From Candidatus Zemynaea palustris (lineage in GTDB: Bacteria; Vulcanimicrobiota; Vulcanimicrobiia; Vulcanimicrobiales; Vulcanimicrobiaceae), in the NCBI GenBank assembly GCA_003134695.1, contig PLCB01000016.1, positions 3,528 to 67,527 of the forward strand: 64,000 nt of DNA, in the 5' to 3' direction. The stretch's first letter is position 1. Every line of letters starts with the position of its first letter. A program made the position numbers and the translations under genes. Shown here one piece after another: positions 13,094 to 48,420 of this stretch. The notes below the pieces were generated by a model. The model did no database searches. It was not told the DNA's origin and was given only the letters and a program-made list of their open reading frames with translations.

Positions 13094-14706
13094 TTCGGCG
13101 GATCGCCGCGGCGCTGCTCGTGCTCGCGTTCGCCGGCTGCACGAAGACCGCCGGCCCGAGCGGCCCCGGCGGACGGCACCCATGGACGATCCCGGGTCAC
13201 GTGCGCATCGGCGCGCCCGACGAGCCGGACAACCTCAACCCGATGTTCGCCCATACCGATGCGACCGATCAGATCGACGCGCTGATCTTCGCGCCGGTCT
13301 TTCGCTACGATCCGCGCGGCGAATTCGTCCCCGAACTCGCAACCGAAGTTCCGACCTACCAAAACGGCGGAATCTCGCGCGATTCGAAGACCATCGTGTT
13401 GCATTGGCGGCGCGGCGTGAAGTGGTCGGACGGTGCGCCGCTCACCGCACGCGACCTCCGTTTCACCTGGCGCGCGGTAATGAACAAACGCAACTCGACC
13501 AAAGCCACGTTCGGCTGGGACGACGTCGCCTCGATCGATCTGCCCGACGATTATACGGCCGTCGTTCGTCTCTTACGGCCCAACGCCGACGTCCTCGGGA
13601 TCTTCGGCGGCGGAGGCGGCAGCGCGTATCCGCCGCTGCCCGAACATCTGCTCGGCGCGCTCCCCGACCTCAATCGCGCGTCGTTCAACGTACACCCAAT
13701 CTCGAGCGGCCCGTGGCTACTGACCGCTTGGAAGCACGGTTCGGGCTTCGAGTTTGCGCCGAATCCGCGCTATTGGCGCGGGCCGCCGACGTTACGCGCG
13801 CTGAGCGTCAAAATCGTCCCGAACGCCGACACGCTGGTCGAGGAGTTGCAGACCCACGAGATCGATGTGATTCAAAACGTCGCCGAGACCGCCGTCGCTC
13901 GGCTCGCGTCGATCGAGGGCATCGCGACGCAACGGCATCTCATCGCCAGTTGGCGCCGGCTTGCGATCGATTGCGGGAAGCCGGTGCTGTCCGACGTGCG
14001 CGTGCGCCTGGCGCTGGCCGAAGCGATCGACTGGGATCGAATGAACGCGACGATCTATCACGGCTACAACCTGCGCGCCAGGAGCGACATTCCGCCCGAC
14101 TCTTGGGCCGCGCCGAAGATTCCGTTCTACAAACACGACGTCGCCGACGCCGAACGCCTGCTGGATGCCGCCGGGTGGCGGCGCGGACCCGACGGGATGC
14201 GCGCGAAGAGCGGCGAGCCGCTTACGCTCACCATTTCCTCGTCCAACGCGCCCGGCAACGAGCAAGCTGAGGTCGTGATGCAACAAGAACTCAAAGCGAT
14301 CGGCATCGCGCTCTCGATCAAGAATTATCCGAGCAGTCTGCTCTTCGCGCAAAACGGCCCGCTCTACGGCGGCAAGTACGACCTCGAATGGTCGATCGAA
14401 ACCAACGGCCCAGATCCCGACAACCAAGGATCGTGGAGTGCCGATTTCCTACCGCCGCACGGCGCGAACACGAGCTTCTTGCGAGATTCCGTGCTCACGA
14501 AAATCTCCGACGAGGCGATTCGGACCTTCAATCGCAAGCGGCGCAAGGCGCTCTATCAGAAAGAAGAGGAACGCATCCACGCGCTGGTCCCGGTGATCTT
14601 CTTCTACTGGGAGCGAACGACGACGGCCTACAACAGCGATTTGCTTAACTATAAACCGGCCGAGTATATCACCGACTACTGGAACTCATGGGAATGGGAT
14701 ATTTAG
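13090..14706 (+). CDS. ABC transporter substrate-binding lipoprotein, family 5 (peptide/nickel type)
   Basis: 538 aa with a lipobox (LAFAGC). Length and motifs fit DppA/OppA-like proteins. Its ATG overlaps the upstream stop (ATGA). Confidence 0.85.
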   Translation: MIRRIAAALLVLAFAGCTKTAGPSGPGGRHPWTIPGHVRIGAPDEPDNLNPMFAHTDATDQIDALIFAPVFRYDPRGEFVPELATEVPTYQNGGISRDSKTIVLHWRRGVKWSDGAPLTARDLRFTWRAVMNKRNSTKATFGWDDVASIDLPDDYTAVVRLLRPNADVLGIFGGGGGSAYPPLPEHLLGALPDLNRASFNVHPISSGPWLLTAWKHGSGFEFAPNPRYWRGPPTLRALSVKIVPNADTLVEELQTHEIDVIQNVAETAVARLASIEGIATQRHLIASWRRLAIDCGKPVLSDVRVRLALAEAIDWDRMNATIYHGYNLRARSDIPPDSWAAPKIPFYKHDVADAERLLDAAGWRRGPDGMRAKSGEPLTLTISSSNAPGNEQAEVVMQQELKAIGIALSIKNYPSSLLFAQNGPLYGGKYDLEWSIETNGPDPDNQGSWSADFLPPHGANTSFLRDSVLTKISDEAIRTFNRKRRKALYQKEEERIHALVPVIFFYWERTTTAYNSDLLNYKPAEYITDYWNSWEWDI

Positions 14707-23732: not shown

Positions 23733-25508
23733 CTAGCCGGGAGGTTTTGTTTTAAGCGCGAGGCCGAGGTCGCGTAAGAGGTCGACGGGGACCGAAGAGG
23801 GTGCGTCCATCATCACGTCGCGGAACGTCTGGTTCTTCGGAAAGGCGATGACGTCGCGGATCGACGTCTCGCCGCAGGCAAGCATCGCGAGCCGGTCGAT
23901 GCCCCAGGCCATCCCTCCGTGGGGCGGCGCACCGTAACGGAGCGCTTCCATGAAGAAGCCGAAGCGCGCTTCGATTTCCGCGTCGGAAAGGCCGAAGATC
24001 TCGAAGATGCGACGTTGGAACTCCGGGTCATGAATGCGAATCGAGCCGCTGCCGAGTTCTGAGCCGTTGAGCACGAGATCGTAGTGCTGGGCGCGCATCG
24101 AGAGCGGATCGGTGTCGAGCAGCGCCTCCTGTCCCGGCGCAGGCGAAGTGAACGGATGATGCGTCGGCGTTAGCGCGCCCGTCTCGGGATCGCGCTCGAA
24201 CAGCGGAAAGCCGACGACCCAGCAGAATGCGAACTTCTCCGGATCGCGCAGGCCGAGCCGCTCGCCGACGTGCAGGCGTAACTTCCCGGCGACGTCGGAG
24301 GCGAGATCTCTCGGCCCGGCGACCAGCAGCAGCGCGTCGCCGGTTTGCGAACTCGTCGCCGTTTGGAGTTTGTCGACGGTTGCGTCGTCCAACAATTTTT
24401 GGATCGACGCCTTCCAACCATCGGCGGCGTAGGAGAGCCAAATCAGTCCGCCGGCGCCGAAGGATTTCGCCGTCTCGGTCAACTCGTCGAAATCGCGCCG
24501 CGACAGCGCTGCGCCGCCGGGATAGCGAACCGCGACGATACGGGATGCGTCGCTCGCCGCGTGTTCCTGCAAGAACTTGATCGGCGTCCCGGCAAACGCC
24601 TCGGCGACGTCGACGAGTTCGAGTTCGAAACGCAGGTCGGGTTTATCGCTGCCATAGCGGCGCAACGCTTCGGCATGCGCGAGCCGCGGAACCGGCTGTG
24701 GAATCTCAACCCCGATCGCCGTACGCCAGGTGTAGACGATGCATTCTTCCATCAAGGCCGTCACGGCATCTTCGTCGACGAACGACATCTCGACGTCGAG
24801 CTGTGTGAACTCCGGCTGCCGGTCGGCGCGCGTATCTTCATCGCGGAAGCAGCGCGCGATCTGCATGTAGCGGCCGAGCCCGCCGATCATCAAGAGCTGT
24901 TTGAGAATCTGCGGCGACTGCGGCAACGCGTAGAACGTTCCCTGATGGAGCCGGCTGGGCACGAGGAAGTCGCGCGCGCCCTCGGGCGTTGACTTAATGA
25001 GACAGGGCGTCTCGATTTCGAGGAAATCCCGCGCGTCGAAGAAATCGCGGATCGCCTTGAGGATCTTGTGACGGACCGTGAGATTGTGCTGCAGCCGCGG
25101 GCGCCGCAAATCGAGGTAGCGATACTTCAAGCGCAGCGACTCGTCGACGTCGGCCTCGACGTTGATCGGGAAAGGCGGGACGAGCGAACGGTTGAGAACG
25201 TCCACGCCCTCGGCGGCGACTTCGACCTCGCCCGTAGAAAGTTTCGGATTCTCGGTCCCGGCCGGCCGGCGGCGCACTAGTCCGCGCACGCGCACCACGT
25301 CCTCGTTGCGCAGCGTCTCGGCGACGGCGAACGCCTCCGCCTGCGACGGATCGAAGACCGCTTGCGTGATCCCGTCTCGGTCGCGCAGATCGATGAAGAT
25401 CAAACCGCCGTGATCGCGCCGCCGGTTTACCCAACCGTCGAGTTGGACGGTCGCACCGACGTCGCTCGCGGTCAAGGCGCCGCAGGAACGCCTTCCCAAA
25501 TCAGGCAC
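23733..25508 (-). CDS. aspS: aspartyl-tRNA synthetase
   Basis: Class IIb motifs FIDLRDRDG, QSPQILKQLLM, FRDEDTRADRQPEFTQLD and GGMAWGIDR. Start set at GTG 25508, just overlapping the GT2 stop. The ORF extends to 25574. Confidence 0.95.
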   Translation of the reverse strand: MPDLGRRSCGALTASDVGATVQLDGWVNRRRDHGGLIFIDLRDRDGITQAVFDPSQAEAFAVAETLRNEDVVRVRGLVRRRPAGTENPKLSTGEVEVAAEGVDVLNRSLVPPFPINVEADVDESLRLKYRYLDLRRPRLQHNLTVRHKILKAIRDFFDARDFLEIETPCLIKSTPEGARDFLVPSRLHQGTFYALPQSPQILKQLLMIGGLGRYMQIARCFRDEDTRADRQPEFTQLDVEMSFVDEDAVTALMEECIVYTWRTAIGVEIPQPVPRLAHAEALRRYGSDKPDLRFELELVDVAEAFAGTPIKFLQEHAASDASRIVAVRYPGGAALSRRDFDELTETAKSFGAGGLIWLSYAADGWKASIQKLLDDATVDKLQTATSSQTGDALLLVAGPRDLASDVAGKLRLHVGERLGLRDPEKFAFCWVVGFPLFERDPETGALTPTHHPFTSPAPGQEALLDTDPLSMRAQHYDLVLNGSELGSGSIRIHDPEFQRRIFEIFGLSDAEIEARFGFFMEALRYGAPPHGGMAWGIDRLAMLACGETSIRDVIAFPKNQTFRDVMMDAPSSVPVDLLRDLGLALKTKPPG

Positions 25509-26412
25509 GGTCGTGCTCCAGTGCGTCCTTGATGCCGCTGACGTAGTGATATTGGTAGACGACGTTGCGCGCAAACCCCGGATGGTCGGCGCCGGTGCGC
25601 TCGAGCCGCTCGAGCAGCCGCGGACTCTTTTGGACCACGCTGTGCAGGACGAGCGACAGCGGCGTCATCCCCAGACGCGCCTTGACGCCAAACGCGGGAT
25701 GTTTGCGGTAGAAACGGACGGTCGAACGGCCGGCGAGCTTCATTTTTTCCTTTTGTTCGTCGTAGGGAACCGGATGCCAGTGATAGTTCACGGCGCGCGG
25801 TTCGTACAAGATCCTGACACCCGCCTGCTGCAGGCGGTAACCGAGCTCGAGATCCTCGTGACCGTAGCCCGTGAAACTCTCGTCGAAACAGCCGACGCGC
25901 TCGAGGTCACCTTTGCGAACCGAGGCGTTTCCGGTGAGGAAGTAGAGCCACGACAGGCGCCTGCGTCCGGCGGGGTGGAGCGGCCGGCGCCGCCCGGGAC
26001 GGTCGCGCAAGTGCTCGTACTCGTCGAGCGACCGCACTTGCAATTCCATCCCCACGACGGCGACGTCGCGCCCCGAGCGATGGTGCGCCAGGTGGCGCTC
26101 GAGCAGATCCGGCGACGCGATGATGTCGGCGTCGGTGAAGAGCACGATCTCGCCCAGCGCCGCACCGATCCCCGCGTTACGCGCCGTCGCGCGTCCGTTG
26201 TACGCTCCGGGAAGATGGCGAACGTTCGACCGCTCGGCGGCGACCTGCGCGAGGTACGCGGTCGTGCCGTCGTTCGAATTCGAATCGGCGACGACGATTT
26301 CGTAGTGCTCGGCCGGTAGCGTGCTCGCGAGCAACGACGGCACGACGTGTCGCAACGTCTCGAGGCGGTTGTACGTCGGAATGACGACGGAGAGTTCAGG
26401 TCTTGGCGGCAT
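25501..26412 (-). CDS. family 2 glycosyltransferase (paralog 1)
   Basis: LSVVIPTYNR, DSNSNDGT, FTDADI, and YGHEDLELGYRL (a Glyco_transf_7C-like motif). Confidence 0.85.
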   Translation of the reverse strand: MPPRPELSVVIPTYNRLETLRHVVPSLLASTLPAEHYEIVVADSNSNDGTTAYLAQVAAERSNVRHLPGAYNGRATARNAGIGAALGEIVLFTDADIIASPDLLERHLAHHRSGRDVAVVGMELQVRSLDEYEHLRDRPGRRRPLHPAGRRRLSWLYFLTGNASVRKGDLERVGCFDESFTGYGHEDLELGYRLQQAGVRILYEPRAVNYHWHPVPYDEQKEKMKLAGRSTVRFYRKHPAFGVKARLGMTPLSLVLHSVVQKSPRLLERLERTGADHPGFARNVVYQYHYVSGIKDALEHDRA

Positions 26413-27391
26413 GCAAAAGCGATTCGGTGGCGGCGACGACTTCCGCGCGGGAAGCCGCGAGTTCTCGGGGCGATTCGCCGGCAGGCTTGCGCAGACAAAC
26501 CGACGGGACGCGGTAGGGCGCCCACTCTTGCGAACTCAGATGAAAGTAGCGGTGTTCGAACAGAACGACGGTGGGCCTGCGCAGCGCGCTCGCAAGATGT
26601 GTCGCGCTGGTATCGACCGTCACGACGATGCGACTTTTCTCGAAAACCGCGGCCCACTGTTGAAACGAGAGCCCGCCGACGATCGCGTCGGCTTGGCCGC
26701 CGGCGCTTAAGCGGCGCGCCTCTTCGATCACGTCGATCCCGTGGGTCACGACGATCGGGAGACCGAAGCGGCGCAATTCGGCGAGCAGCGCGAGCGTACT
26801 CTCGAAGGAGCTGCCGTTTTCGAACCAGCGGCGGCCGAGATGGAATGCGATGCCTCCCCCCGGAACGTAATCGACCGCATGCCGATCGATCTCGACGATC
26901 GGAACGACCAAGTCGCGAACCAACTCGCCACCGCCGGCCAGCGTGACGAGCTCGAGTATCTGATCGACTTCGTGCCGGACCTTCACCCCGGGCTGCCGTT
27001 CGCAGATCTCGGGATCGGCCTCGGAGATCGCGACGCGATTGAGAAAGAGCGGCGCGGTCAAGCGCGTGAAGTAGCGGCGCACGTACGTATAGCCGACGCG
27101 ACGCGGCGCTCGCGTCGCGCCGACGAGCATGAAGTCCGGGGCGCACGGCGCGAGCGCGATCGCGAGATCGCATTTTCCGCGAAATTTCTTTCCAATTTCG
27201 GCGACGCCGCGCCCAACCGGCGCCACCACGAGCGCGTCGACGTCCGGATTGCGCTCGACGACGGCCGCATTGTAGCGGCTGCACACGATCGAAACGTGCG
27301 CGTCGGGCCAGGAGCGGCGCACCGAGGCGATCGCCGGCGTCGAGAGGATCAGATCGCCGATGCGATCGAGCCGGCTCAGAACGATGTTCAC
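26396..27391 (-). CDS. family 9 glycosyltransferase (heptosyltransferase-like, paralog 1)
   Basis: GTG 27391 overlaps the upstream stop (GTGA). N-terminal IVLSRLDRIGDLILSTPA and C-terminal VTVDTSATHLASALRRPTVVLF are typical of RfaF/WaaC-type GT9. Confidence 0.8.
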   Translation of the reverse strand: MNIVLSRLDRIGDLILSTPAIASVRRSWPDAHVSIVCSRYNAAVVERNPDVDALVVAPVGRGVAEIGKKFRGKCDLAIALAPCAPDFMLVGATRAPRRVGYTYVRRYFTRLTAPLFLNRVAISEADPEICERQPGVKVRHEVDQILELVTLAGGGELVRDLVVPIVEIDRHAVDYVPGGGIAFHLGRRWFENGSSFESTLALLAELRRFGLPIVVTHGIDVIEEARRLSAGGQADAIVGGLSFQQWAAVFEKSRIVVTVDTSATHLASALRRPTVVLFEHRYFHLSSQEWAPYRVPSVCLRKPAGESPRELAASRAEVVAATESLLHAAKT

Positions 27392-28290
27392 GGCCGCCGA
27401 GCCGAATCCAGTTCTTCGTAATAGGCTCCGCGCGCCAACGCCCGCGCGGCGAACAGCGCCCGCGCCGAGAGCTGCCGGTCGGTGCTCCGCTCGCCGACGA
27501 TTCCGGCGAGCAAATGCGGTACGCCGACGACGCGCGCGATTCGATGCAGAGCGCGGTGCACCGGATCGTTCCCGGTCGCCAACACCACGCGCCAATGCGG
27601 ATGAAGGGCGCGCAACTGCGCGGCGGTGCGCGCCTGCGCCCGCGCTTGGCGCATCATGCCATCGACGTTTGCGGCGGTCGGCCGCGGTTTGTAGTGAAAG
27701 ACGATCGCCTTCTTGTTGAAGATCGATCGCGTCCCAGCGAAACGCAAACGTAGTCCGAGTTCGATGTCTTCCCAGCCGTACTCGCGAAAGGTTTCGGTGA
27801 ATCCGCCGAGCGCGCGCAACTTCGCGAGCGGCAGCGAGACGTTGCTCGTCCAAAAATAGTTGCCGCTGTAGTTCAGCGGCGTCCAGACCGGCAGCGGGAG
27901 GCGCTCGAAGCTCTGCGTGTTGATCACGGCGCCACGTACGATCGCTTGCGGCGCAAGGTCGTGCGAGCGCAGATGTTCGGCGACAAACGAGGGTATCGGC
28001 AGCGTGTCGTCGTCGATGAAGATGATGCGCGCCCCGCTCGCCCGCGCGATCCCGACGTTGCGCGCGCGGGCAAGCCCTGCGTTGGGCTGGCGCACGACGG
28101 TGAAGGCGCAGGTCGCACGAGCCTTCGCCGTTTCGATGACGGCGGCCGTGTCATCGACCGATCCGTCGTCGACGAGCACGACCTCGTACTGTTCGGACGG
28201 CGACGTCTGTTCGAAGCACGCGTCGAGGACGCGTCCCAACAGATGCGCACGGTTGTAGGTGCAGAGCTGAATCGTCGCGCGAATCGCCAT
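27388..28290 (-). CDS. family 2 glycosyltransferase (paralog 2)
   Basis: IQLCTYNR, VDDGSVDDT, FIDDDT, YGWEDIELGLRL. Confidence 0.85.
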   Translation of the reverse strand: MAIRATIQLCTYNRAHLLGRVLDACFEQTSPSEQYEVVLVDDGSVDDTAAVIETAKARATCAFTVVRQPNAGLARARNVGIARASGARIIFIDDDTLPIPSFVAEHLRSHDLAPQAIVRGAVINTQSFERLPLPVWTPLNYSGNYFWTSNVSLPLAKLRALGGFTETFREYGWEDIELGLRLRFAGTRSIFNKKAIVFHYKPRPTAANVDGMMRQARAQARTAAQLRALHPHWRVVLATGNDPVHRALHRIARVVGVPHLLAGIVGERSTDRQLSARALFAARALARGAYYEELDSARRP

Positions 28291-28291
28291 C

Positions 28292-29305
28292 TTAGGTGCC
28301 GGGCGCTTCGGCCTGCGCGGCGAGCAGCCCGCTCAGGGCACTGAGGACGCGCGGCACGTCGAGTGTAGCGACGCAGGCGAAATCGGGACACGTCTCCTTG
28401 CGGTGACCCGGCGGACAAGGGTAGTTCGCCCGGACCGTCGCCGTCCGCCGCCCGAGCGGCGCCCAACGATCGGGTACGTCGGATTGCAGTGCGTAGATCC
28501 CCACCGTCGGCGCGCCCACCGCGGCCGCGACGTGCATCGGTCCGCTGTCCATCGCGACGACGGCGCGCGCGCGCGCTGCGAGCGCACCGAACGTGCCGAG
28601 CGAGGTCTTCGCGGCGAGCGAGATGCCGCCGGATTGGCGCGCGATCTCAGCGGCGATTTCGGCGTCCGCCGCCGTTCCGCTCACGACGAGCGCCGCGCCG
28701 GTCGTCGCGCGTAGCGAACGAGCCAGTGCGACGAGGCCGGCAGTCGGCCAGCGCGCGCGAATCGAGGCGATCGCGCGCGTCGGATGGAGGAGCAGGAATG
28801 GCTCCGCGACATCGTGCTCGCGGAGCAAGCGTTCGGCTTCGGCGTGCTCCGCGTCGTCGATCGGAAAACTCGGCGTCGCGTCGGCGACGTCGCAATCGAG
28901 AGCGCGCGCGAAATCCAGCAAGATCTGCGTCCAATGCGTCGTTCGATCTCCCAGTTCGCTGCGTATGAGGACGCGATGCGTGAACAGCCGCGAATACAAA
29001 CGTCTCGATTGCCCCACACGGATCGGGAGGCGTGCCGCAAACGGCAAGGCCGCCGCCCGTAACGTCGCCCAGGTCACCACCACCGCGTCGAAGTGGGCGG
29101 CGCCGATCCGCCGGGCTTGTGCGGCGAAGTTGCGATCGTCGACCCAAACGTCGGCGAGCATCGTTTGGCGCGACAGAACCTCGCGGTGCGCCGGTGCGGT
29201 CAACGCGACGACGTCTTCGTAGCGCGCGTGCAGTGCTCGCATCACGGGCGTCGCCAGCAAAACGTCGCCGATCCCACCGCCGGCGCAGATGACCAGGGCT
29301 TTCAC
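28292..29305 (-). CDS. family 9 glycosyltransferase (heptosyltransferase-like, paralog 2)
   Basis: GTG 29305 overlaps the upstream stop (GTGA). Motifs VKALVICAGGGIGDVLLATP and AMDSGPMHVAAAVGAPTVGIY. Confidence 0.8.
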   Translation of the reverse strand: MKALVICAGGGIGDVLLATPVMRALHARYEDVVALTAPAHREVLSRQTMLADVWVDDRNFAAQARRIGAAHFDAVVVTWATLRAAALPFAARLPIRVGQSRRLYSRLFTHRVLIRSELGDRTTHWTQILLDFARALDCDVADATPSFPIDDAEHAEAERLLREHDVAEPFLLLHPTRAIASIRARWPTAGLVALARSLRATTGAALVVSGTAADAEIAAEIARQSGGISLAAKTSLGTFGALAARARAVVAMDSGPMHVAAAVGAPTVGIYALQSDVPDRWAPLGRRTATVRANYPCPPGHRKETCPDFACVATLDVPRVLSALSGLLAAQAEAPGT

Positions 29306-30321
29306 GATAGCGAGCCGAGATCGCCGGTCGCGAGCAAACTCTCGAGCTCGCGCGCGACCCGCTCGCCGACGCTCGAACGGTCCTCGACGATGAGCGCGCG
29401 CGCCGGCGCCGCCCAGGGCCGCCAGCGCGCGACGTCGCTCGGCGCCTGCGCACCCGCCGGAAACAGCACGACGGACGGGATGCCGAGCATCCCCGCCACG
29501 TGAGACGCGCCTGAATCTGGGGTCACGATGGCGCGCGCTCCGGCCAAGAGCGCCTTCCATTCACCTAGGTTCGGGGGATGAACGAACGGCGTCGCCGCGC
29601 GCGCCGCAAAGGCCGCGCCGAAGATGTCGTCGTCGGTCATCGCCAGCACCGCGTGACCGCGGCCTGAGAGTTCGCGAGCGATGGCGGCAAATGCAGCGAT
29701 ATCGATCCCGGAACCGACGAACTTGGCGTTCAATTGAACGACGATCGCGCCGTGGCGCTCGGGTTCGGCGTCGAGGACGAGCGGGCGCAGCCGCGCGAGC
29801 AACCGCGTCGGCTCCGTTTCATGGTGGAACCCGTCGCCGAGCCGAAAGAGCGTCTCGACCTCGTGCTCGCGGACGCGCGCCGCCGAGGCCGGACGGACGA
29901 TGGCGCGAGTCAGAAGCGCGCGAAGGCGCACGGTCTTGAACGGTTTCTCCCAACCGTTGATGAAGCCGGTGCGCTGCGGAATCCCCGCATCGCGTGCAAA
30001 CGTGTATGCGTCGGGCTCTTCCGATGCGACGAACGCGGCATCGTATGCCACGCCGCGCGCCTCGCTCAACGCGCGTTCGCGCGATTCCGGCGTCATCCCG
30101 TGTCGCGGCCACGGCGTGCGTTCGACAACGTGAACGTGACTGAAGACGCGCCTGGCAAACGCGTCACGATTGCGCGGCGTCAAGACGGCGCCGAGCTCGT
30201 GACCTGCGTCGCGCAACGCGGCGACGAGCGGCGCGCACGCGAGCGCGTCGCCGACGCCGTCGACGCGAACCAGCAGGATGCGGCTAATGGCGAAGCCCCG
30301 CGAGCGCGCGCCGCAGCGCAC
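29302..30321 (-). CDS. family 9 glycosyltransferase (heptosyltransferase-like, paralog 3)
   Basis: RILLVRVDGVGDALACAP and TPDSGASHVAGMLGIPSVVLF. The start is uncertain: GTG 30321 is chosen, and ATT 30289 just after the upstream TAG is another possibility. Confidence 0.75.
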   Translation of the reverse strand: MRCGARSRGFAISRILLVRVDGVGDALACAPLVAALRDAGHELGAVLTPRNRDAFARRVFSHVHVVERTPWPRHGMTPESRERALSEARGVAYDAAFVASEEPDAYTFARDAGIPQRTGFINGWEKPFKTVRLRALLTRAIVRPASAARVREHEVETLFRLGDGFHHETEPTRLLARLRPLVLDAEPERHGAIVVQLNAKFVGSGIDIAAFAAIARELSGRGHAVLAMTDDDIFGAAFAARAATPFVHPPNLGEWKALLAGARAIVTPDSGASHVAGMLGIPSVVLFPAGAQAPSDVARWRPWAAPARALIVEDRSSVGERVARELESLLATGDLGSLS

Positions 30322-31165
30322 CGGTGTACACCGCGTCGAGATACTGCCCGCGAGCGAACGCGCGCAACGGCGCGAGGAGCTTCGGGTTCTCGGCGGCGCG
30401 GCGGTATGCCGGCGCGAGCCGTTCGGGCGCCAGCAGCGCGGCGCGCCAAAGGTTCGGGAGGTACGCGCCGGTCGCAAGCCTGATGCGCAGACCGCGATCC
30501 TTTTCGAGCAACCGTGCCGCCATCTGCGCGCGTTCGACGGCCTTGGTCGCGAGCGTCGCCAGCGTCTCGCTCTCGGGCGGTTTGATGTGATAGAGGTAGG
30601 CGTCCCACGCGAACGCGCGCCGCACGCCGCTGCGTCGCAGGCGTAGGCCGAGCTCCGTATCTTCCCAACCGTAGAGATCGAAACGAGTGTCGAAGCCGTT
30701 GACGGCGAGCAGCGCCGCGCGCGGAATCGAGACGTTGCACGTGCACAAGAACGCGTTGGAGTAGTTCAAGAACGATGGTTTCGAGCGCGCCTCATACGAC
30801 GCAACGTTGAGGATCGGACCCGAGACCGCCAGCGGAGCCGAGTCGCGATGGGCGCGCGCGTGGGCCTCGAGAAAGCCGGACGGTAGCCGGACGTCGTCGT
30901 CGACGAAGACGACCAGCGCGCCTCGCGCGGCTTCGATGCCGGCGTTACGTGCGGCGCCGCGGTTCGCTTCGGCGACGAAGATGCGACGCACCGCAAACGT
31001 CTCGCTCGCGCGCGCGGCGGCGACTTCGGCGGTCGCGTCGCTCGAACCGTTGTCGACGACGATCGTTTCAAACGGCGGCGCGTTCTGCTGCGCGCCGAGC
31101 GAGTCGAGCGCACGCGCCAGAAACTCCGCCCGGTTGCGCGTCGCGATGACGATCGAGATCAGCAC
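30284..31165 (-). CDS. family 2 glycosyltransferase (paralog 3)
   Basis: GTG 31165 (GTGCTGA overlap with the upstream stop). Motifs ISIVIATRNR, VDNGSSDAT, FVDDDV, YGWEDTELGLRL. Confidence 0.85.
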   Translation of the reverse strand: MLISIVIATRNRAEFLARALDSLGAQQNAPPFETIVVDNGSSDATAEVAAARASETFAVRRIFVAEANRGAARNAGIEAARGALVVFVDDDVRLPSGFLEAHARAHRDSAPLAVSGPILNVASYEARSKPSFLNYSNAFLCTCNVSIPRAALLAVNGFDTRFDLYGWEDTELGLRLRRSGVRRAFAWDAYLYHIKPPESETLATLATKAVERAQMAARLLEKDRGLRIRLATGAYLPNLWRAALLAPERLAPAYRRAAENPKLLAPLRAFARGQYLDAVYTGALRRALAGLRH

Positions 31166-32394
31166 CGTGCGAGCCCCAGCAACGAGCCGGCCATACGTTC
31201 TGCGGCGCCGACGTGAAGAGCGTAGAGCGAACGCAGGCGAGCGACGGCGGCGGTGCGTGCCGCGTCGTCGCGCGCGTACTCGGCGATGCGCTGCGCGACG
31301 TACCCCGGCGTCAGCGTCCCGCGCAACTCCGGCATCAGCGCCTCGCCGGCATCCATGTTCGGCTGCGCTGTGAACGTGAAGCGCGCGTCGACGGCGAGGA
31401 CAGCCGCCCGTTTGAGCGCGACGCCTACGAGCGGGATGCGATCGATGTACTGCAGTGGGCCATTGATCACGACCTGTTCCGGGACGTTGCTCGGCGCGCA
31501 GACGACCGTCGGGACGCCGAGCGCCGCGAGTTCGACGCACTTGGTCCCCGGGATCGTCGCGACCATTCGCGCGCGTACCGCAAAGCGCATCGCGTCGCGG
31601 ACGACGGGAAATCGCGCGCGATCGCCTTCGGCCTGGAGGACGAGCCCGTCTGGTTCGCGCACGAGCGTGCCGCGCATCCCCCACACGTTGGGATGACCGC
31701 CCCCGGCGAGCGCGCGTTCCAACTCGGTTTCATCCGTAAACGGCGATATTCCGAACGCCACCGGAAATTCCGGCGCGAGCGAACGCAGCCTGACGGCCGC
31801 GGCGAGAAAGAACGGGATGAGGCTCGTAATTTCGTTTTTTCGCGCGCCGGGCATGATCAGAACTCCGCCGGGAGCGATCCGCTTGTCGTCATCGGGCCGC
31901 AACGCGAACGCCCCAGCGGCTTCTCCCAGCGCGCCGTCGACCGCAAGGTTTCCGACGATCTCGATGCGTTCGCGCGGGACGCCGCTGCCGGCGAGCTTGT
32001 CGGCGTTGGGTTCGTCGACCGCGTAGGCGCGCGCCAGCGAACGTGCCGCGCGGCGGCGCGCAAACTTGTAGGTCGCGGCCGCGCCGCCAAGACGCGCGTG
32101 GACGCGCGCCGCATGCAAGAGATCCCCGCCGAGGTAGAGCACCGCGTCGGCGGCAGGGGGGACGCCGGCGACGTCACGGCCGAGCGCGAAGCGTACGTAG
32201 TCGCGCGGTGCGACCACGCAAACGTTCGGAAAATAGGCACGTGCCACGTCCGCTTCGCGGCCCGTCGCATAATCGTCGGGAACGAAGAACAGCGTCACCT
32301 CGGATTCAGGCGCGATGCGTTTGAGGCTCGCGACGAGCGGTCGCACCCAGCCCGAGAACTCACCGGGGCCGTTGCTGGTGATGGCTATCCGCAT
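31159..32394 (-). CDS. lipid-A-disaccharide synthase (LpxB, GT19)-related glycosyltransferase
   Basis: 411 aa. IMPGARKNEI versus E. coli LLPGSRGAEV. IPGTKCVELAALGVPTVV versus SGTAALECMLAKCPMVV. FTAQPNMDAGEALMPEL versus YVSLPNLLAGRELVKEL. Divergent overall. Confidence 0.7.
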   Translation of the reverse strand: MRIAITSNGPGEFSGWVRPLVASLKRIAPESEVTLFFVPDDYATGREADVARAYFPNVCVVAPRDYVRFALGRDVAGVPPAADAVLYLGGDLLHAARVHARLGGAAATYKFARRRAARSLARAYAVDEPNADKLAGSGVPRERIEIVGNLAVDGALGEAAGAFALRPDDDKRIAPGGVLIMPGARKNEITSLIPFFLAAAVRLRSLAPEFPVAFGISPFTDETELERALAGGGHPNVWGMRGTLVREPDGLVLQAEGDRARFPVVRDAMRFAVRARMVATIPGTKCVELAALGVPTVVCAPSNVPEQVVINGPLQYIDRIPLVGVALKRAAVLAVDARFTFTAQPNMDAGEALMPELRGTLTPGYVAQRIAEYARDDAARTAAVARLRSLYALHVGAAERMAGSLLGLARC

Positions 32395-32506
32395 GAATTA
32401 CAGCTGCGAGTCATTTTTGCCGAGTTCGAGGACCGAGGAGCGCAGAATGGTGAGACCCATTTAAGCGACGAGGGACGAAGAAATCGGCAAAAAGGACCGC
32501 AGCACG

Positions 32507-33001
32507 CTAGGGGCCGTAGCGCCGGCGAATCTCTGCTATTAAGTCGGTCGTGCTCTTGTGCGCGACGTGCGGCGCGAGCCGGATCTCGCCCCCGTGCTGG
32601 CCGACGACGGCGCGCTCCGGCAGATCCTCGAGACGGTACTGTGCACTCTTGACGTGGACGTCGGGTTTGAGCCGATCCAAGATTTGCTCCGGCGTGCGCT
32701 GCGGGAATCCGATGACCGCGTCGACGCTGCGTAGGGCCGCGAGCACCGCGGCCCGATCTCCGAACGGGACGAGCGGGCGTTCGGGCCCTTTGAGCGCACG
32801 CACCGATTCGTCCGCATTGACGCCGAGCAGCAGCACGTCGCCCTGTTCGCGCGCCCACGCCAGATACGCGACGTGACCGGCGTGCACGATGTCGAAGACG
32901 CCGTTGGTAAAGACGACGCGTTTCCCTTCGGTGCGCAGACGCTCGCGCCACGCGACGGCCGCCTCGAGTTCGAGGATCGGTGCGAACCACCGCTCAGGCA
33001 T
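32507..33001 (-). CDS. hldC: D-beta-D-heptose-1-phosphate adenylyltransferase (RfaE domain II as separate protein)
   Basis: From ATG 33001. Cytidylyltransferase motif FTNGVFDIVHAGHV and C-terminal KSTTDLI. Confidence 0.85.
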   Translation of the reverse strand: MPERWFAPILELEAAVAWRERLRTEGKRVVFTNGVFDIVHAGHVAYLAWAREQGDVLLLGVNADESVRALKGPERPLVPFGDRAAVLAALRSVDAVIGFPQRTPEQILDRLKPDVHVKSAQYRLEDLPERAVVGQHGGEIRLAPHVAHKSTTDLIAEIRRRYGP

Positions 33002-33980
33002 CGCCGTCACCTCCCACGAGCGCGACGATCTCGTCGGGTGACGCGGTCGCCGTCCCCAATTTTTCGACGACCGCGCCGGCCGCAAAGTTTGCCAGTTGCA
33101 AGGCCATCTCGATCGATGCGTCGGCGGCAAGCGCGGCGGTGAGCACCGCGATCACGGTATCGCCGGCACCGCTGACGTCGTAGACCGTATGGGCGACCGA
33201 CGGGACGAGCACGCGCGTCCCGTCGCCGCCGAACAACGCCATCCCGCGCTCGCCGCGCGTTATGACGACGTAGCGGCAACCGAGGCGCTCGAGCAGTGCG
33301 CGACCGGCGCGCTCGAGCGAGGCGTCGTCTCGGATGGCGATGCCGGTCGCCGCCACCGCCTCGGTCGCGTTCGGCGCCAGCACGGTGACGCCGTCGAACA
33401 GCGCGATGTTGCGGGGCTTCGGATCGGCGGTGACGATCGGCGCCGCACGCACCGCTTCGACCAGTTCGCGCGTGAAGAGTCCCTTCGCGTAGTCGCTGAG
33501 CACGACCGCGTCGCACTCGGCTGCGAGTTCGCGAACTCGTTCGCACAGGTTCGTGGAATCGACCGCTGCGATCGACTCGACCGACTCCCAATCGGCGCGC
33601 ACGACCTGCTGATTGTGCGCGACGATCCGTGTCTTGCGCGTCGTCGGACGATCGCCCAATATGACGACCGCGTCGTGATTGACCTCGATGTCGTCGAAAA
33701 GTTTCTTCACGCGATGGCCTTCGGCGTCGTCGCCGACCGCGCCGGCGAAGGCGACGTGCGCGCCGATCGCGCGCAGGTTGTTGGCGACGTTCCCGGCACC
33801 GCCGAGCGTGAACGAATGATCGTTGACCGCGACGACTGGAACGGGAGCCTCGGGCGAGATGCGCGAGACCGTGCCCCAAACCCACTCGTCGAGCATGACG
33901 TCGCCCACGACGAGGATCCTCTTGTCACGCATGCGCTCGAACAACCGGCGCGCGCCGCGTTCCAGCAACGTCTCAGGCAT
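32994..33980 (-). CDS. hldA: D-beta-D-heptose-7-phosphate kinase (RfaE domain I as separate protein)
   Basis: PfkB-family sugar kinase: ILVVGDVMLDEW, GGAGNVA, DVSGAGDTV. Confidence 0.85.
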   Translation of the reverse strand: MPETLLERGARRLFERMRDKRILVVGDVMLDEWVWGTVSRISPEAPVPVVAVNDHSFTLGGAGNVANNLRAIGAHVAFAGAVGDDAEGHRVKKLFDDIEVNHDAVVILGDRPTTRKTRIVAHNQQVVRADWESVESIAAVDSTNLCERVRELAAECDAVVLSDYAKGLFTRELVEAVRAAPIVTADPKPRNIALFDGVTVLAPNATEAVAATGIAIRDDASLERAGRALLERLGCRYVVITRGERGMALFGGDGTRVLVPSVAHTVYDVSGAGDTVIAVLTAALAADASIEMALQLANFAAGAVVEKLGTATASPDEIVALVGGDGDA

Positions 33981-34518
33981 GGACGCGCTCCAAGAAGAGC
34001 TTCACGCCTTCGAGCAGCGTACGCACGCGAAAGAGCGGTTCCGGACCGTCGTAGACGCCGAACTCGTTGACGAGGATCCCGGGGATGCCGAGCGCGTCTG
34101 CCATCGCCATGTCGCCGCCGCGATCGCCGAAGACGACGCTGCGCGCCAGATCGAGTCCGCGCTCCTCTGCCGCACGGTGCGCCATCCCCGGCAGCGGTTT
34201 GCGGCAGTCGCAGTCTTCGAGATGCGCGCAATAGTAAAACGCGTCGACGGCTGCCCCGTGCCGCGCCAGACGCACGGCGAGTTCGCGGTGGACGCGCTCG
34301 ACGTCCGGCTCGCCGAAGATCCCACGCGCGACGCCGGATTGATTGGTGACGACGACGCGTTCGAAACCCGCCTCGCCAAGCAAGCGCAACGCCTCGGGGA
34401 CCCCGGCGAGGATATTGATGCGTTCCATCGTGCCGATGTAACCGGTATCTTCCATCAACGTCCCATCACGATCCAGAAACGCCGCCGGCTTCGCGGCAGT
34501 CTGCGCTCGCTCGCTCAA
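33973..34518 (-). CDS. gmhB: D-glycero-D-manno-heptose-1,7-bisphosphate phosphatase
   Basis: HAD motif FLDRDGTL, VTNQSG, zinc-finger-like CAHLEDCDCRKP, GDRGGDM. TTG start with AGGGA upstream. Confidence 0.85.
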   Translation of the reverse strand: MSERAQTAAKPAAFLDRDGTLMEDTGYIGTMERINILAGVPEALRLLGEAGFERVVVTNQSGVARGIFGEPDVERVHRELAVRLARHGAAVDAFYYCAHLEDCDCRKPLPGMAHRAAEERGLDLARSVVFGDRGGDMAMADALGIPGILVNEFGVYDGPEPLFRVRTLLEGVKLFLERVHA

Positions 34519-34524
34519 AGGTCC

Positions 34525-35109
34525 CTAGACTTCGCTTTCGCGCGTCTGGAACAGCGCCTGTTCGACGAGTTCGCAAACGACGTGTCCCATTGTAATGTGC
34601 ACCTCTTGGATGAGCGCCGAGTGACCGTCGGGCCCCACGAGCGCGATGTCGGCGACGGCGGCGACCTTTCCGCCGCCGTTGCCGGTAAAAGCAATGGTCG
34701 TCGCGCCAAGCCGTTTCGCTTCTTCCAAGCCCGCGACGACATTGGGCGAGTTGCCGCTGGTCGTGATCCCGACGACGACGTCGCCACGCTGCGCGAACGC
34801 TTCGACCTGGCGCGCGAAAACGCGCTCGTAACCGTAGTCGTTCGCGATCGCCGTGACCGCCGACGGATTGACGGATAAGGCCTCAGACGGCAAACCGCGA
34901 CGCTCGCGCAAGAACCGCCCGCTGAATTCGGCGGCGAGGTGTTGGGCGTCGGCGGCGCTGCCGCCGTTGCCGAACCACAAGACTTTCCGCCCCGCCGCGA
35001 ACGCCGCAGTCAAGGTGCGGGCGATGCGGTCGACGACGGCTTCGTACCGATCGGGATCGAGCAAACCGCGCCGGTCGTCCAGGATTTGCCGAAAGCTGCG
35101 CTTGCGCAT
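34525..35109 (-). CDS. gmhA: phosphoheptose (sedoheptulose-7-phosphate) isomerase
   Basis: From ATG 35109. SIS domain with FGNGGSAADAQHLAAEF and TTSGNSPNV. Confidence 0.9.
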   Translation of the reverse strand: MRKRSFRQILDDRRGLLDPDRYEAVVDRIARTLTAAFAAGRKVLWFGNGGSAADAQHLAAEFSGRFLRERRGLPSEALSVNPSAVTAIANDYGYERVFARQVEAFAQRGDVVVGITTSGNSPNVVAGLEEAKRLGATTIAFTGNGGGKVAAVADIALVGPDGHSALIQEVHITMGHVVCELVEQALFQTRESEV

Positions 35110-35543
35110 TATGGTTCGATCCAAAACATCTCCTCGCCGAGCGAGACGAGCGCGCCGTTCTCGGGCAAGATGCGGCGGACGACGCCCGCATAGTCGCTGG
35201 TGATCTCGTTCATCAGCTTCATCGCTTCGAGGATGCAAAGAACTTGGCCGACCTCGACGCGATCGCCGACCTCGACAAACGCCTCGGCTCCAGGTGCCGA
35301 AGCGAGATAGAACACGCCGATGATCGGCGCGGTAACCTTCTTATAATTCGCGGCCGCAACGGCTTCGGCCGACGCAGCGGCCGACACGTTTCCTTCGCTT
35401 GCAGCCGCCGGCGTAGCCGGAGTCCCTTCGACGCGCTGGACCAATTCGTACGTCCGCTCGCCGGAACGCACGGTCAGTGCGTCGAGATCGTTGTCGCGCA
35501 TGATCTCGAGCATCCCCTCGAGTCCCTCGCGTTCTTCGATCAT
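35109..35543 (-). CDS. accB: biotin carboxyl carrier protein (AccB)
   Basis: 144 aa with an Ala/Pro linker and the biotinylation motif CILEAMKLMNEI. Confidence 0.85.
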   Translation of the reverse strand: MIEEREGLEGMLEIMRDNDLDALTVRSGERTYELVQRVEGTPATPAAASEGNVSAAASAEAVAAANYKKVTAPIIGVFYLASAPGAEAFVEVGDRVEVGQVLCILEAMKLMNEITSDYAGVVRRILPENGALVSLGEEMFWIEP

Positions 35544-36859
35544 ACGGCCTCGGGAAAGGCGGTCGCGGGTCGCAATTCGCGATACCAGCGCAGGATTTCG
35601 TCGGCTGTGACTTCGGCCGAAGCCAGCGGCACCGAGAGTTTGGACTGCGTGCGCGCGACCAGATCTCTCGCGACGACGACGCTCGCCGCCACTTCGTCGT
35701 CGCCGAGGATCACCGCCGCTCGTGCGTTGGCCCGGTCGGCGCGTTTGAGTTGGCGCTCGAGTTTCGCCTCGCCGTAATCTTGGATGATCGGCACTCCGGC
35801 GTCGTCGCGCCGGCGCAACGCCGCGAGCAGCTCGAGGCTGAGTTTTCGCGCACGCGCTCCGAGGGCCACGACCGCTATCCCTTCGCGCTCCGCCGCCGCG
35901 CTCGCCCCCATTTCGTCGAGCAGCATCAGAAAACGCTCGAGACCGAGGCCGAACCCGACGCCCGGCGTCGGCGGGCCGCCGAGCGAGCGCACCAAATCGT
36001 CGTAACGTCCGCCGCCGCAGATCGCATTCTGCGAGCCGAGAAATTCCGAGTCGAACTCGAAGACCGTGCGCGTGTAGTAGTCGAAACCGCGAACCAGCCG
36101 CGGTTCGACCTGATGCGGTATGCCGATCGCATCGAGCCCCGCGCGAACCGCATCGAAGTGGGCGCGGCTCTCGGCGGAGAGCAGGTCGAGAAATGTCGGC
36201 GCATTCGCGATGAACGCACGATCCTCGGGAGCTTTGCTATCGAGGATGCGTAGCGGGTTGCGCTCGAGCCGGCGCCGGGAGTCCTCGGATAGCGCGTCGC
36301 GGTGCGGTTCGAAATGGCGCAGGAGCGCTTCGCGATAGGCCGGACGATCGCGTTCGTCGCCGATCGAGTTGAGCCGCAAGACGATACCTGGAATGCGATA
36401 CGCGCGCAGCAGTTCGTAGGCGAGGTGGATGACTTCGACGTCGGCTTCGGGCTCGCCGTAACCGAAACACTCGACACCGAACTGATGCGCTTGACGGTAG
36501 CGCCCTTTCTGGGGACGTTCGTGCCGGAAGAACGAGCCGACGTAGTAGAGCCGCTGCGGACCGCTCGACAAGAGGTTGTGCTCGAGCAGCGCGCGCACGA
36601 CCGGCGCCGTCCACTCGGGCCGAAGCGTGAGACTGCGGCCCCCCTTGTCGGTGAACGTGTACATCTCTTTCTCGACGATGTCGGTCGTATCGCCGACGCC
36701 GCGCACGAAGAGTTCGGTAGCCTCGAACACCGGCGTGCGGATCTCGCCATACCCGAAGCGACGCGCGATCGCGTGGATGCGCGCTTCAAGAGCTTGCCAG
36801 CGGGCGCTCTCGGGGGGATAGACGTCTGCCGTCCCCCGCGGGGCGGCGAGTTTGCTCAC
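35540..36859 (-). CDS. hisS: histidyl-tRNA synthetase
   Basis: 439 aa with PRGTADVYP, LTLRPEWTAPVVRA, FRHERPQKGRYRQ and GGGRYD. Confidence 0.95.
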   Translation of the reverse strand: MSKLAAPRGTADVYPPESARWQALEARIHAIARRFGYGEIRTPVFEATELFVRGVGDTTDIVEKEMYTFTDKGGRSLTLRPEWTAPVVRALLEHNLLSSGPQRLYYVGSFFRHERPQKGRYRQAHQFGVECFGYGEPEADVEVIHLAYELLRAYRIPGIVLRLNSIGDERDRPAYREALLRHFEPHRDALSEDSRRRLERNPLRILDSKAPEDRAFIANAPTFLDLLSAESRAHFDAVRAGLDAIGIPHQVEPRLVRGFDYYTRTVFEFDSEFLGSQNAICGGGRYDDLVRSLGGPPTPGVGFGLGLERFLMLLDEMGASAAAEREGIAVVALGARARKLSLELLAALRRRDDAGVPIIQDYGEAKLERQLKRADRANARAAVILGDDEVAASVVVARDLVARTQSKLSVPLASAEVTADEILRWYRELRPATAFPEAV

Positions 36860-47026: not shown

Positions 47027-48280
47027 TTACTCTTTGTACTTTCCGAACACTAAGACGCTGTTGTGCCCGCCGAAACCGAACGAATTGGAAAGCGCGATGT
47101 CGACTTTCGCTTTGCGCGCGACGTTCGGAACGTAATCGAGCGTGCACTCGGGATCCGGAAACTCGTAGTTGATCGTCGGCGGCATGATGTCGTGGTGAAC
47201 TGCCAGCGCCGTTACCACGCCTTCCAGCGCGCCAGCCGCGCCGAGCGCGTGCCCGTGCATGCTCTTGGTCGAACTGACCGCGAATTTGTGACCGCCAGCA
47301 CCGATGACGCGGTCGAGCGCTTGCGACTCGGCCAGGTCGCCCATCGGCGTCGAGGTTCCGTGCGCGTTCACGTAATCGACTTGGTCGGAACGAATCCCGA
47401 TGCTTTCGAATGCACGTGACAACGCGAGTTCGACGCCGTGGCCGGTTGGATCGACCGCGACGAGGTCGTAGGCGTCGGCCGATTGACCGTAGCCGAAAAA
47501 CTCGGCATAGATGCGCGCGCCGCGTTTGCGCGCGAAGTCGAGCTCCTCGAGGATCAAGATCGCGCCGCCTTCGGCGAGGACGAACCCGTCGCGTTCTTTG
47601 TCGAACGGACGGCTGGCTTTCGTCGGCTCGTCGTTGCGCGTCGAAAACGCCTTCATCGAATCAAAGCCGCCCATCGCGATGTCGGCGATCGCAGCCTCAG
47701 AACCGCCGCTGACCATCGCGATCGCGTTGCCGTGCGCGATCGAGTCGTAAGCGATCGCGAGCGCATCGTTCGCACTCGCGCAGGCGCTCGAGACCGCGAA
47801 CATCGGCCCGCGCAGCCGTTCCCGCATCGAGATCTGCGCGGGCGCGGCGTTACTCATCAGCATCGGGACGAAGAACGGGCTGATGCGGCCGGCGGTCTTT
47901 TGTTCGCGCGCTTTGGTGACGGTCTCTTGAATCGTAATCATGCCGCCGATGCCGCTCGCGACGATGGCGCCCGTGTCCTTGCGCACCTCGTCGTCCTGGG
48001 GAAAATTCGCATCGGCGAGCGCCTCGCCCGCCGCGACCATCGCGAACTGCGCGAAGCGATCCATCCGGCGCGCGTCGCGCCGACCGAGCAGCACGTCGGG
48101 TTCGAAGCCCTTGACTTCCGCGGCGATGTGGCAGCGCAAGCCGGCGGCCACGGGGTCGAAGGCGGTAACCCGCGCGACGCCGCTCTCACCGGCGACCAGC
48201 CGGCGCCAGAATTCGTCTTTGGTATTCCCCAGGGGCGTGACGGCGCCGAGCCCGGTGATGACGACCCGTTTCTTAACCAA
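47027..48280 (-). CDS. fabF: 3-oxoacyl-ACP synthase II
   Basis: [16 protein letters not shown], active-site [22 protein letters not shown]. Start set at TTG 48280 with GGAG 3 nt upstream. The ORF extends to 48361. Confidence 0.9.
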
Positions 48281-48410: not shown

Positions 48411-48420
48411 GAGGCCCGTC

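Follow-up and report, generated by a model that had tools for sequence, protein, structure and literature searches.

We analysed a 64,000-nucleotide stretch of the genome of Candidatus Zemynaea palustris (contig PLCB01000016.1, positions 3,528 to 67,527 of the forward strand; hereafter the window), focusing on a block of heptose-synthesis and glycosyltransferase (GT) genes that lies between hisS and aspS and includes a gene for a 411-amino-acid LpxB-like protein, which we call GT19L. On the minus strand, fourteen open reading frames with high guanine-plus-cytosine (GC) content at third codon positions run from hisS (35540–36859) through aspS (23733–25508). They are given below in the order in which they are read, together with the one intergenic gap; scores are in bits and cut-offs are those of the respective models.

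35540–36859, minus strand: hisS, histidine–tRNA ligase, first of the array (TIGR00442 473, above cut-off; its stop overlaps the start of the BCCP-like gene in ATGA).
35109–35543, minus strand: BCCP-like biotinyl carrier, 144 amino acids, EAMKLMN motif (PF00364; TIGR00531 107.6, cut-off 115.2).
34525–35109, minus strand: gmhA, sedoheptulose-7-phosphate isomerase (SIS domain; best match TIGR00441 184.6, below the cut-off of 209; TAATG junction with the BCCP-like gene).
33973–34518, minus strand: gmhB, heptose 1,7-bisphosphate 7-phosphatase of HAD-IIIA type (best matches NF006506 133.8 and TIGR00213 106, both below cut-offs).
32994–33980, minus strand: hldA, D-glycero-beta-D-manno-heptose-7-phosphate kinase (TIGR02198 354.3, above the cut-off of 345; ATGCCTGA overlap on both sides).
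32507–33001, minus strand: hldC, heptose-1-phosphate adenylyltransferase (TIGR02199 173, cut-off 181.5; PF01467).
32395–32506, minus strand: intergenic gap of 112 nucleotides, the only non-coupled junction (sequence read).
31159–32394, minus strand: GT19L, assigned below to a sister family of LpxB, 411 amino acids (no Pfam match; TIGR00215 17.8, cut-off 190).
30284–31165, minus strand: GT2_c, inverting GT-A glycosyltransferase, 293 amino acids (PF00535 81.7; PF02709; DDD at residue 89, YGWEDTELGLRL at residue 165).
29302–30321, minus strand: GT9_c, heptosyltransferase-like, 339 amino acids (PF01075 38.6; best NCBIfam match heptosyltransferase III, 27; DSGASHVA and GVGD motifs; start at 30321 taken from the public gene call).
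28292–29305, minus strand: GT9_b, heptosyltransferase II-like, 337 amino acids (PF01075 110.5; TIGR02195 101.3, cut-off 134.6; WaaF structure 1PSW in the PDB, E 4e-12).
27388–28290, minus strand: GT2_b, 300 amino acids (PF00535 84.5; DDD and YGWEDIELGLRL motifs).
26396–27391, minus strand: GT9_a, heptosyltransferase I/III-like, 331 amino acids (PF01075 39.2; TIGR02193 61.6, cut-off 185; DTSATHLA motif).
25501–26412, minus strand: GT2_a, 303 amino acids (PF00535 100.6; DAD and YGHEDLELGYRL motifs).
23733–25508, minus strand: aspS, aspartate–tRNA ligase, last of the array (NF001750 786.6, above cut-off; junction GTGCCTGA, in which its GTG start, at 25508, overlaps the stop of GT2_a).

An earlier note on this DNA, made from the letters alone, had described fourteen coupled minus-strand genes from hisS to aspS, and reading the open reading frames and junctions bears this out, with the correction that positions 25501–35109 hold eleven genes rather than the ten it counted. 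The five junction strings it quoted read exactly so on the minus strand: GTGA at 27388–27391 and at 29302–29305, GTGCTGA at 31159–31165, ATGCCTGA at 32994–33001 and TAATG at 35107–35111. Further overlaps occur at hisS/BCCP (ATGA), at gmhB/hldA as well as hldA/hldC (both ATGCCTGA) and at GT2_a/aspS (GTGCCTGA); GT9_a and GT2_a share 17 nucleotides, and the spacer between GT9_b and GT2_b is a single nucleotide. The sole real gap in the array, between hldC and the GT19L gene, contains no promoter-like site and no Rfam match, and its terminator-like sites are as frequent as expected from shuffling; scans of the region for promoters, terminators, Rfam families and tRNA genes gave nothing above chance. 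The operon-like coupling of the hisS–aspS genes is real, and the block is probably co-transcribed with both flanking synthetase genes. No T-box leader precedes hisS or aspS in the window, unlike in the Firmicutes hisS–aspS operon, and across the whole 64 kb neither a tRNA gene nor any Rfam family reaching its gathering score was found.

A scan of one genome per species with the LpxB-like protein returned 201 places, the best 80 of which were fetched as loci. Nearly all of these 80 are labelled Vulcanimicrobiota or Eremiobacterota; the names given to homologues of the LpxB-like protein are Candidatus Eremiobacteraeota or Vulcanimicrobiaceae, and proteins identical to those of the window lie on long contigs from wood and peat metagenomes. 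These matches place the window in Candidatus Eremiobacterota (Vulcanimicrobiota). When the fourteen proteins were aligned to the loci by tblastn, about 80 loci gave the order hisS–BCCP–gmhA–(gmhB)–hldA–hldC–GT19L–GT2_c–(GT9_c)–GT9_b–GT2_b–GT9_a–GT2_a–aspS, which holds wherever the contig is long enough, at identities of 45–90%. Many Baltobacteraceae-type genomes have neither gmhB nor GT9_c in the locus, and only two GT9 and two or three GT2 genes are universal in the phylum; GT9_c, the most divergent copy, is dispensable, being missing in many genomes. Outside the phylum, an Armatimonadota metagenome-assembled genome (MAG; locus L097) reads hisS–BCCP–ABC exporter–hldA–hldC–GT19L–GT9–GT2–GT9–GT2, with one-to-one orthologues of GT9_a, GT9_b, GT2_a and GT2_b, and a locus from another lineage (L098) reads GT9x4–gmhB–hldA–hldC::GT19L–GT2x3–GT9–aspS. 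The best matches outside the phylum are at 38% identity for GT9_b, 33% for GT9_a, 41% for GT2_b, 44% for GT2_c and 48% (Armatimonadota) or 52% (L098) for GT2_a, and the values for GT9_b, GT2_b and GT2_a (38%, 41% and 48%) are those of orthologues in Armatimonadota specifically. Since each paralogue of the window has its own best match outside the phylum, the paralogue set is ancient, and the gene arrangement, judged from these comparisons, is older than the phylum.

These observations do not sit with the earlier description of the block as an accessory system inserted into a conserved hisS–aspS pair. The gene order is kept in roughly 80 genomes and in other phyla, and the GC content of the block (0.65–0.69) is like that of its flanks, which carry housekeeping genes (purH, smc, rnc, fabF, rpmA, obg, mreBCD, ATP synthase and ABC transporter genes); no mobility genes were found in the block or in the flanks within the window. 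None of the marks of a genomic island, whether patchy distribution, deviant composition or flanking mobility genes, is seen here. Given the phylum-wide order, the core shared with Armatimonadota, the even composition and the lack of mobility genes, we regard the locus as ancestral and not as an insertion.

Two further observations concern the layout. There is one recurrent break point, at GT9_b/GT2_b, where other species hold 0.4–4.9 kb of unrelated genes (for example L045 3312–8258 and L048 13059–16717), including, on the opposite strand, genes for protoporphyrinogen oxidase, ferrochelatase and uroporphyrinogen decarboxylase; with contents of haem synthesis and unknowns, these inserts were ruled out as additional lipopolysaccharide (LPS) functions. 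The BCCP-like gene, which the earlier note left unnamed, is wedged between hisS and gmhA and overlaps both; it keeps this position across the Eremiobacterota loci and in the Armatimonadota MAG (L097 319–807; 54% identity), with no accC or accA partner nearby.

The genes for donor synthesis are as previously described: Pfam and NCBIfam matches identify GmhA, GmhB and separate HldA and HldC, and the ADP-D,D-heptose pathway set is complete, with four of four enzymes encoded and adjacent. HldA scores above its cut-off, while HldC, GmhA and GmhB fall slightly to clearly below theirs, though the best matches are to the right families. The product of these donor genes is most likely ADP-D-glycero-beta-D-manno-heptose. 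The argument that a lack of HldD fixes D,D-heptose as the donor stands only in its first half: tblastn with E. coli queries found no hldD in the window, but HldD is widespread in the phylum, having been found in many Eremiobacterota, and its position shifts. In one locus it lies inside the array (L074 13026–14063; 357.8 bits against a cut-off of 274.6), and in OY968762.1, a relative that also has the locus, it is flanked by fabF and rpmA at a distance of about 8 kb from hisS (L095 10001–11032). At 47027–48699 of the window fabF and rpmA are directly adjacent, with no hldD between them, and none occurs elsewhere in the window; in this genome hldD may lie elsewhere or be absent. Because HldD is encoded in or near the locus in relatives, the stereochemistry of the donor is not readable from the window. 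Following the DNA outwards from hldD outside the locus led to housekeeping or TonB-dependent receptor genes and to no other LPS genes; in a Candidatus Cybelea MAG, hldD adjoins genes for TonB-dependent receptors, which are outer-membrane proteins.

The count of three GT2 and three GT9 enzymes is also sound (three matches to PF00535 and three to PF01075). All three GT2 carry the YG(W/H)ED.ELG.RL motif that had been pointed out, as well as a D(A/D)D motif, and their pairwise identities are 32–39%. The three GT9, in turn, show only local similarity among themselves and are therefore ancient rather than recent paralogues. Each keeps an N-terminal GD motif and a C-terminal D(T/S)G..H(L/V)A motif, and the best curated matches are heptosyltransferase I (HepI) for GT9_a, II (HepII) for GT9_b and III (HepIII) for GT9_c, all at scores below the cut-offs. 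PDB sequence searches with the three proteins returned only WaaF, WaaC and a Veillonella GT9 (for GT9_a: 3TOV, WaaF and WaaC), and no autotransporter heptosyltransferase of the TibC/AAH type was matched by GT9_a, GT9_b or GT9_c. The earlier suggestion that the acceptor could be a protein finds no footing in these matches, which are to LPS heptosyltransferases only.

GT19L is the component that is out of the ordinary. No Pfam or NCBIfam model covers the protein, and its previous designation as GT19 LpxB-like holds at the level of the superfamily but not of the family (no Pfam match; TIGR00215 17.8 bits against 190). An AlphaFold (AF2) model built from 34 homologues has a GT-B fold with a pLDDT, the predictor's own confidence score, of 92; a Foldseek search with this model places UDP-GlcNAc 2-epimerases first and LpxB at rank 13 with a low TM-score, a generic GT-B ranking from which we conclude that fold alone does not discriminate. 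Profile comparisons with an alignment of 87 sequences from the wider family are more informative: the family aligns over its full length with E. coli LpxB (hhalign probability 99.2%, E 7.7e-20), and in a PDB profile search LpxB is found at E 4e-24, with the second-best match at 2e-7. A primary relationship to WaaA was ruled out, since hhalign gives E 7e-7 for WaaA and 7.7e-20 for LpxB; so was membership in TIGR03492, for which six family members score 15–35 bits against a cut-off of 219 and the window protein has no match at E<=0.01.

Hidden Markov models (HMMs) of the GT19L family and of LpxB, both built in this analysis, separate the two groups: on the GT19L HMM, members of that family reach 385 bits or more, and on the LpxB HMM no more than 118; canonical LpxB proteins reach 394 or more on theirs and no more than 149 on that of GT19L. 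The window protein, with 407 bits on the family HMM and 28 on the LpxB HMM, is the least LpxB-like member. From the active-site set of LpxB published by Bohl et al. (PMC5785501), in which D98 is the predicted base, E15, D98, T277, E281 and N316 correspond to E12, D91, T284, E288 and N346 of GT19L, and P198-G199-S200-R201 corresponds to P182-G183-S184-R185 in the family; the window protein has A at residue 184, where LpxB has the phosphate-binding S200. GT19L is thereby predicted, from model and alignment, to combine a GT-B fold with the catalytic and UDP-binding residues of LpxB, the equivalent of S200 excepted. By its sequence, GT19L belongs to a sister family of LpxB that is large, uncharacterised and as yet without a name, and in this respect the expectation that the locus holds something undescribed was right; a literature search for LpxB-like proteins found nothing relevant.

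The family is not confined to the phylum. A profile search of 1.84 billion representatives of clusters at 50% identity recovered 870 GT19L-family proteins at E<=1e-3, 259 of them at E<=1e-30, and with members in Armatimonadota and Bacillota MAGs the family extends far beyond Eremiobacterota. Its neighbours elsewhere are informative. In a Bacillota MAG (L096) GT19L directly follows a canonical lpxB and is itself followed by an msbA-like exporter gene, lptC, lptB and lptFG; in a metagenome protein (P0343) GT19L is fused with a true LpxB, which scores 332 bits on TIGR00215, and the gene lies next to lpxA and a GnnA-like gene. HldC::GT19L fusions occur (P0340/P0390), as do fusions of GT19L with GT2 in either order (GT19L::GT2 and GT2::GT19L), and in P0329 it is an orthologue of GT2_c that is joined to GT19L. 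The assembly GCA_031082125.1, labelled Candidatus Eremiobacteraeota, has bamA–ompH–lpxD–lpxC–fabZ–gnnB–gnnA–lpxA–lpxB on one contig and GT19L::GT2 on another. This coexistence with canonical LpxB implies that, where both are visible, GT19L is not the lipid A disaccharide synthase; in such lineages, to go by gene content and fusions, it is a second enzyme of LpxB's pathway.

In the window's own class, Eremiobacteria, it is conceivable that GT19L is the lipid A disaccharide synthase itself, a divergent LpxB orthologue or replacement that has moved beside the core genes of an ordinary LPS locus. All catalytic and UDP-binding positions of LpxB save S200 are kept, and many family members are labelled 'lipid-A-disaccharide synthase' in annotations of the Joint Genome Institute (JGI). 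A search with the canonical LpxB domain, moreover, found LpxB from Xenobiia-type Eremiobacterota, Bacillota, Armatimonadota and Rokubacteria, the lowest identity being 37%, and no recognisable contig of class Eremiobacteria among its best 120 matches, though that class flooded the searches with GT19L and HldD; absence from the best 120 matches is weak evidence. Set against this, GT19L coexists with a canonical LpxB in every lineage that shows both (as a neighbour in L096, as a fusion in P0343, within one assembly in GCA_031082125.1), the HMM scores part the two families cleanly, with only 28 bits for the window protein on the LpxB model, and the constant companions of GT19L are heptose, GT9 and GT2 genes, not lpxA or lpxD. 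We consider a role as the class's LpxB rather unlikely.

The envelope of the host bears on what the locus builds. Vulcanimicrobium alpinus, the only cultured member, is Gram-negative, with inner and outer membranes and thin peptidoglycan visible by transmission electron microscopy; its fatty acids include 16.5% iso-C14:0-3OH and 11% iso-C13:0-3OH (27% together), and four unidentified glycolipids were also reported (PMC9758169). According to Ward et al., genes for LPS synthesis and for BamA are present in WPS-2 genomes (PMC6664022). Taken with the PDB matches of the GT9 enzymes, the reported diderm envelope makes an LPS inner core with GT2-added hexoses the economical reading, and we think it likely that the block is the ancestral LPS inner-core and ADP-heptose operon of diderm Eremiobacterota, situated between hisS and aspS. 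The acceptor would then most likely be lipid A or the inner core rather than a protein.

The competing proposal of the earlier note, in which the locus is an accessory insertion whose product, an oligosaccharide of alternating heptose and hexose, is built on a protein or an atypical glycolipid instead of on LPS, draws on genuine features. Its statement that the window has no genes for 3-deoxy-D-manno-oct-2-ulosonic acid (Kdo) or the Raetz pathway of lipid A synthesis is accurate, tblastn with E. coli queries finding no match there to lpxA/C/D/K, waaA or kds; the GT9 enzymes and GT19L are far from curated LPS equivalogs, and the four glycolipids of V. alpinus (PMC9758169) count in its favour. 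Yet the locus is kept in about 80 of the 80 fetched species-level genomes and across phyla with one-to-one orthologues, its GC content shows no anomaly and its flanks no mobility genes, the GT9 enzymes have no similarity in the PDB to autotransporter heptosyltransferases, and in other genomes GT19L occurs in association with lpxA and lpxB, with lpt genes and with an msbA-like gene. We regard such a non-LPS system as highly improbable.

Several points nonetheless weigh against an LPS inner-core operon with GT19L as a working part. The GT9 scores lie below the equivalog cut-offs of WaaC, WaaF and WaaQ (61.6 against 185 for HepI, 101.3 against 134.6 for HepII, 27 against 170 for HepIII), and GT19L lies below every curated equivalog cut-off. 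The GT19L proteins of class Eremiobacteria break near-invariant sites of the family (C40 to D, S184 to T or A, W116 lost), and with these changes their activity or substrate may have shifted. Neither the window nor 1.45 Mb of sequence from 90 Eremiobacteria loci yielded a lipid A, Kdo or Lpt gene; there, tblastn with E. coli LpxA/B/C/D/K, FabZ, WaaA, KdsA/B/C/D, MsbA and LptA/C and with Xenobiia-type LpxA/B/C/D gave generic ABC ATPase matches only. GCA_031082125.1, the one MAG labelled Eremiobacterota that showed a canonical lpx cluster, has 56% GC and a GT19L distant from that of the window, and for these reasons it probably belongs to class Xenobiia and not to the window's class. To our knowledge, no LPS chemistry exists for the phylum. 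A metagenome scan with an LpxC alignment gave, among the matches listed, mixed phyla, the high-GC group being Rokubacteria/Methylomirabilota, and a literature search for Eremiobacterota together with lpx or KDO found nothing relevant. For a Raetz/Kdo pathway in the window's class the argument comes down to two papers, on V. alpinus (PMC9758169) and on WPS-2 (PMC6664022), whose supplementary tables name no lpx, kds or waa genes. The earlier note had named two findings that would make this an ordinary LPS inner-core locus, a complete Raetz/Kdo pathway and GT9 proteins within the WaaC/WaaF/WaaQ groups; a diderm envelope with LPS genes is indeed reported (PMC6664022, PMC9758169), but the GT9 scores fall short of the corresponding equivalogs.

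Returning to the LPS inner-core operon, we can outline a scheme in which the acceptor, sugars, linkages and order of steps are all predicted. GmhA, HldA, GmhB and HldC would convert sedoheptulose-7-phosphate to ADP-D-glycero-beta-D-manno-heptose, possibly followed by epimerisation through an HldD from elsewhere in the genome. Heptoses would be added, on the cytoplasmic side of the inner membrane, by the two universal GT9 enzymes, GT9_a (HepI/III-like) and GT9_b (HepII-like), and the third, lineage-specific GT9_c may contribute another; the three inverting GT2 enzymes would add hexoses. The expected product is a heptose/hexose inner core, with two or three heptoses, on a lipid A-type anchor. 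GT19L would most likely act early in the same pathway by an LpxB-like inverting transfer from a UDP-sugar to a glucosamine-type lipid acceptor. In lineages with a canonical LpxB this step would have to differ from formation of the lipid A disaccharide; in the window's class it could be an additional step or a takeover of the LpxB role. One possibility, which we offer tentatively, is that GT19L takes a further sugar from a UDP donor and attaches it either to the lipid A disaccharide or to a precursor of it, one candidate site being the 6' position, usually occupied by Kdo. In Eremiobacterota, Armatimonadota and some diderm Bacillota the heptose/hexose core would thereby be primed or modified; carried to its limit, the idea implies that the core in these phyla is attached with no Kdo involved.

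Comparison with known systems brings out shared features and differences. With the enterobacterial inner core (hldD–waaF–waaC and waaQ, plus gmhA, gmhB and hldE) the locus shares ADP-heptose synthesis, the GD and D(T/S)G..H(L/V)A motifs of its GT9 enzymes and best curated matches that trace HepI, HepII and HepIII. It differs in that none of its GT9 enzymes reaches the WaaC/F/Q cut-offs, HldA and HldC are encoded separately, donor synthesis is specified within the operon, and GT2 enzymes stand in place of GT4 and GT8 hexosyltransferases; it has no WaaA, WaaP/Y kinases or WaaL, and it has an LpxB paralogue and tRNA synthetase flanks. The lipo-oligosaccharide inner cores of Haemophilus, Neisseria and Campylobacter have a tri-heptose backbone with a hexose per heptose, added for example by the GT2 enzyme LgtF on HepI. 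The number and interleaving of GT9 and GT2 genes in the window would fit a backbone of this type with a hexose on each heptose, as an analogy in layout; only two GT9 and two or three GT2 genes, however, are universal in the phylum. Other uses of activated heptose, in the TibC/AAH autotransporter heptosyltransferases and the GDP-heptose pathway of S-layer glycans, serve non-LPS glycoconjugates, and the kinase and nucleotidyltransferase of the window are of the ADP-beta-heptose type (TIGR02198, TIGR02199) and not of the GDP-alpha type.

For GT19L itself, the closest comparison is LpxB (GT19; PF02684, TIGR00215; PDB 5W8S), with which it shares the GT-B fold, full-length profile homology, catalytic residues and, in other phyla, lipid A gene neighbours. 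It differs as a separate family that coexists or is fused with true LpxB and lies next to heptose, GT9 and GT2 genes, and the SVWAW acyl-groove segment of LpxB aligns with an Arg/Lys-rich segment in the window's class. TIGR03492, the 'lipid-A-disaccharide synthase-related protein', is likewise an uncharacterised LpxB-related GT-B family, one from which the scores given above exclude GT19L. What is new here is the LpxB sister family tied to ADP-heptose, GT9 and GT2 genes; the rest reads as an LPS-core-type operon.

The biogenesis of the outer membrane in diderm Terrabacteria is central to the debate on the kinship of one- and two-membrane bacteria, and the locus offers a compact, deeply conserved set of genes that we expect to determine the inner core in both Eremiobacterota and Armatimonadota, namely those for ADP-heptose synthesis, two or three each for GT9 and GT2 enzymes, and one for an LpxB paralogue. 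The reaction of GT19L, once found, would add a step to a pathway deemed fully mapped since Raetz, and would also correct the JGI 'lipid-A-disaccharide synthase' annotations; if GT19L is only a divergent LpxB, the locus is ordinary.

Two side observations come from loci with canonical lpx genes. GnnA-like (Gfo/Idh/MocA) and GnnB-like (DegT) genes lie between fabZ and lpxA in L101 (6948–9109) and on the P0343 contig, which suggests a lipid A backbone of 2,3-diamino-glucose in Xenobiia-type Eremiobacterota. In the same L101, which comes from the MAG with the canonical lpx cluster, two genes past lpxB, a 398-amino-acid protein starting MAPRILFISNGYGED (12292–13488) resembles the TIGR03492 type in appearance and, if it is of that type, would be a third LpxB paralogue in one genome. 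Elsewhere in the window, Pfam matches on the public gene calls indicate a DpnI-like restriction endonuclease (about 5292–6050, plus strand), nitrile hydratase alpha and beta subunits (about 8124–9360, minus strand) and a WecB-like epimerase with a GT4 (WecA/MraY-type) phosphosugar transferase (about 1493–3700, minus strand), the last two genes adjoining those of the ATP synthase.

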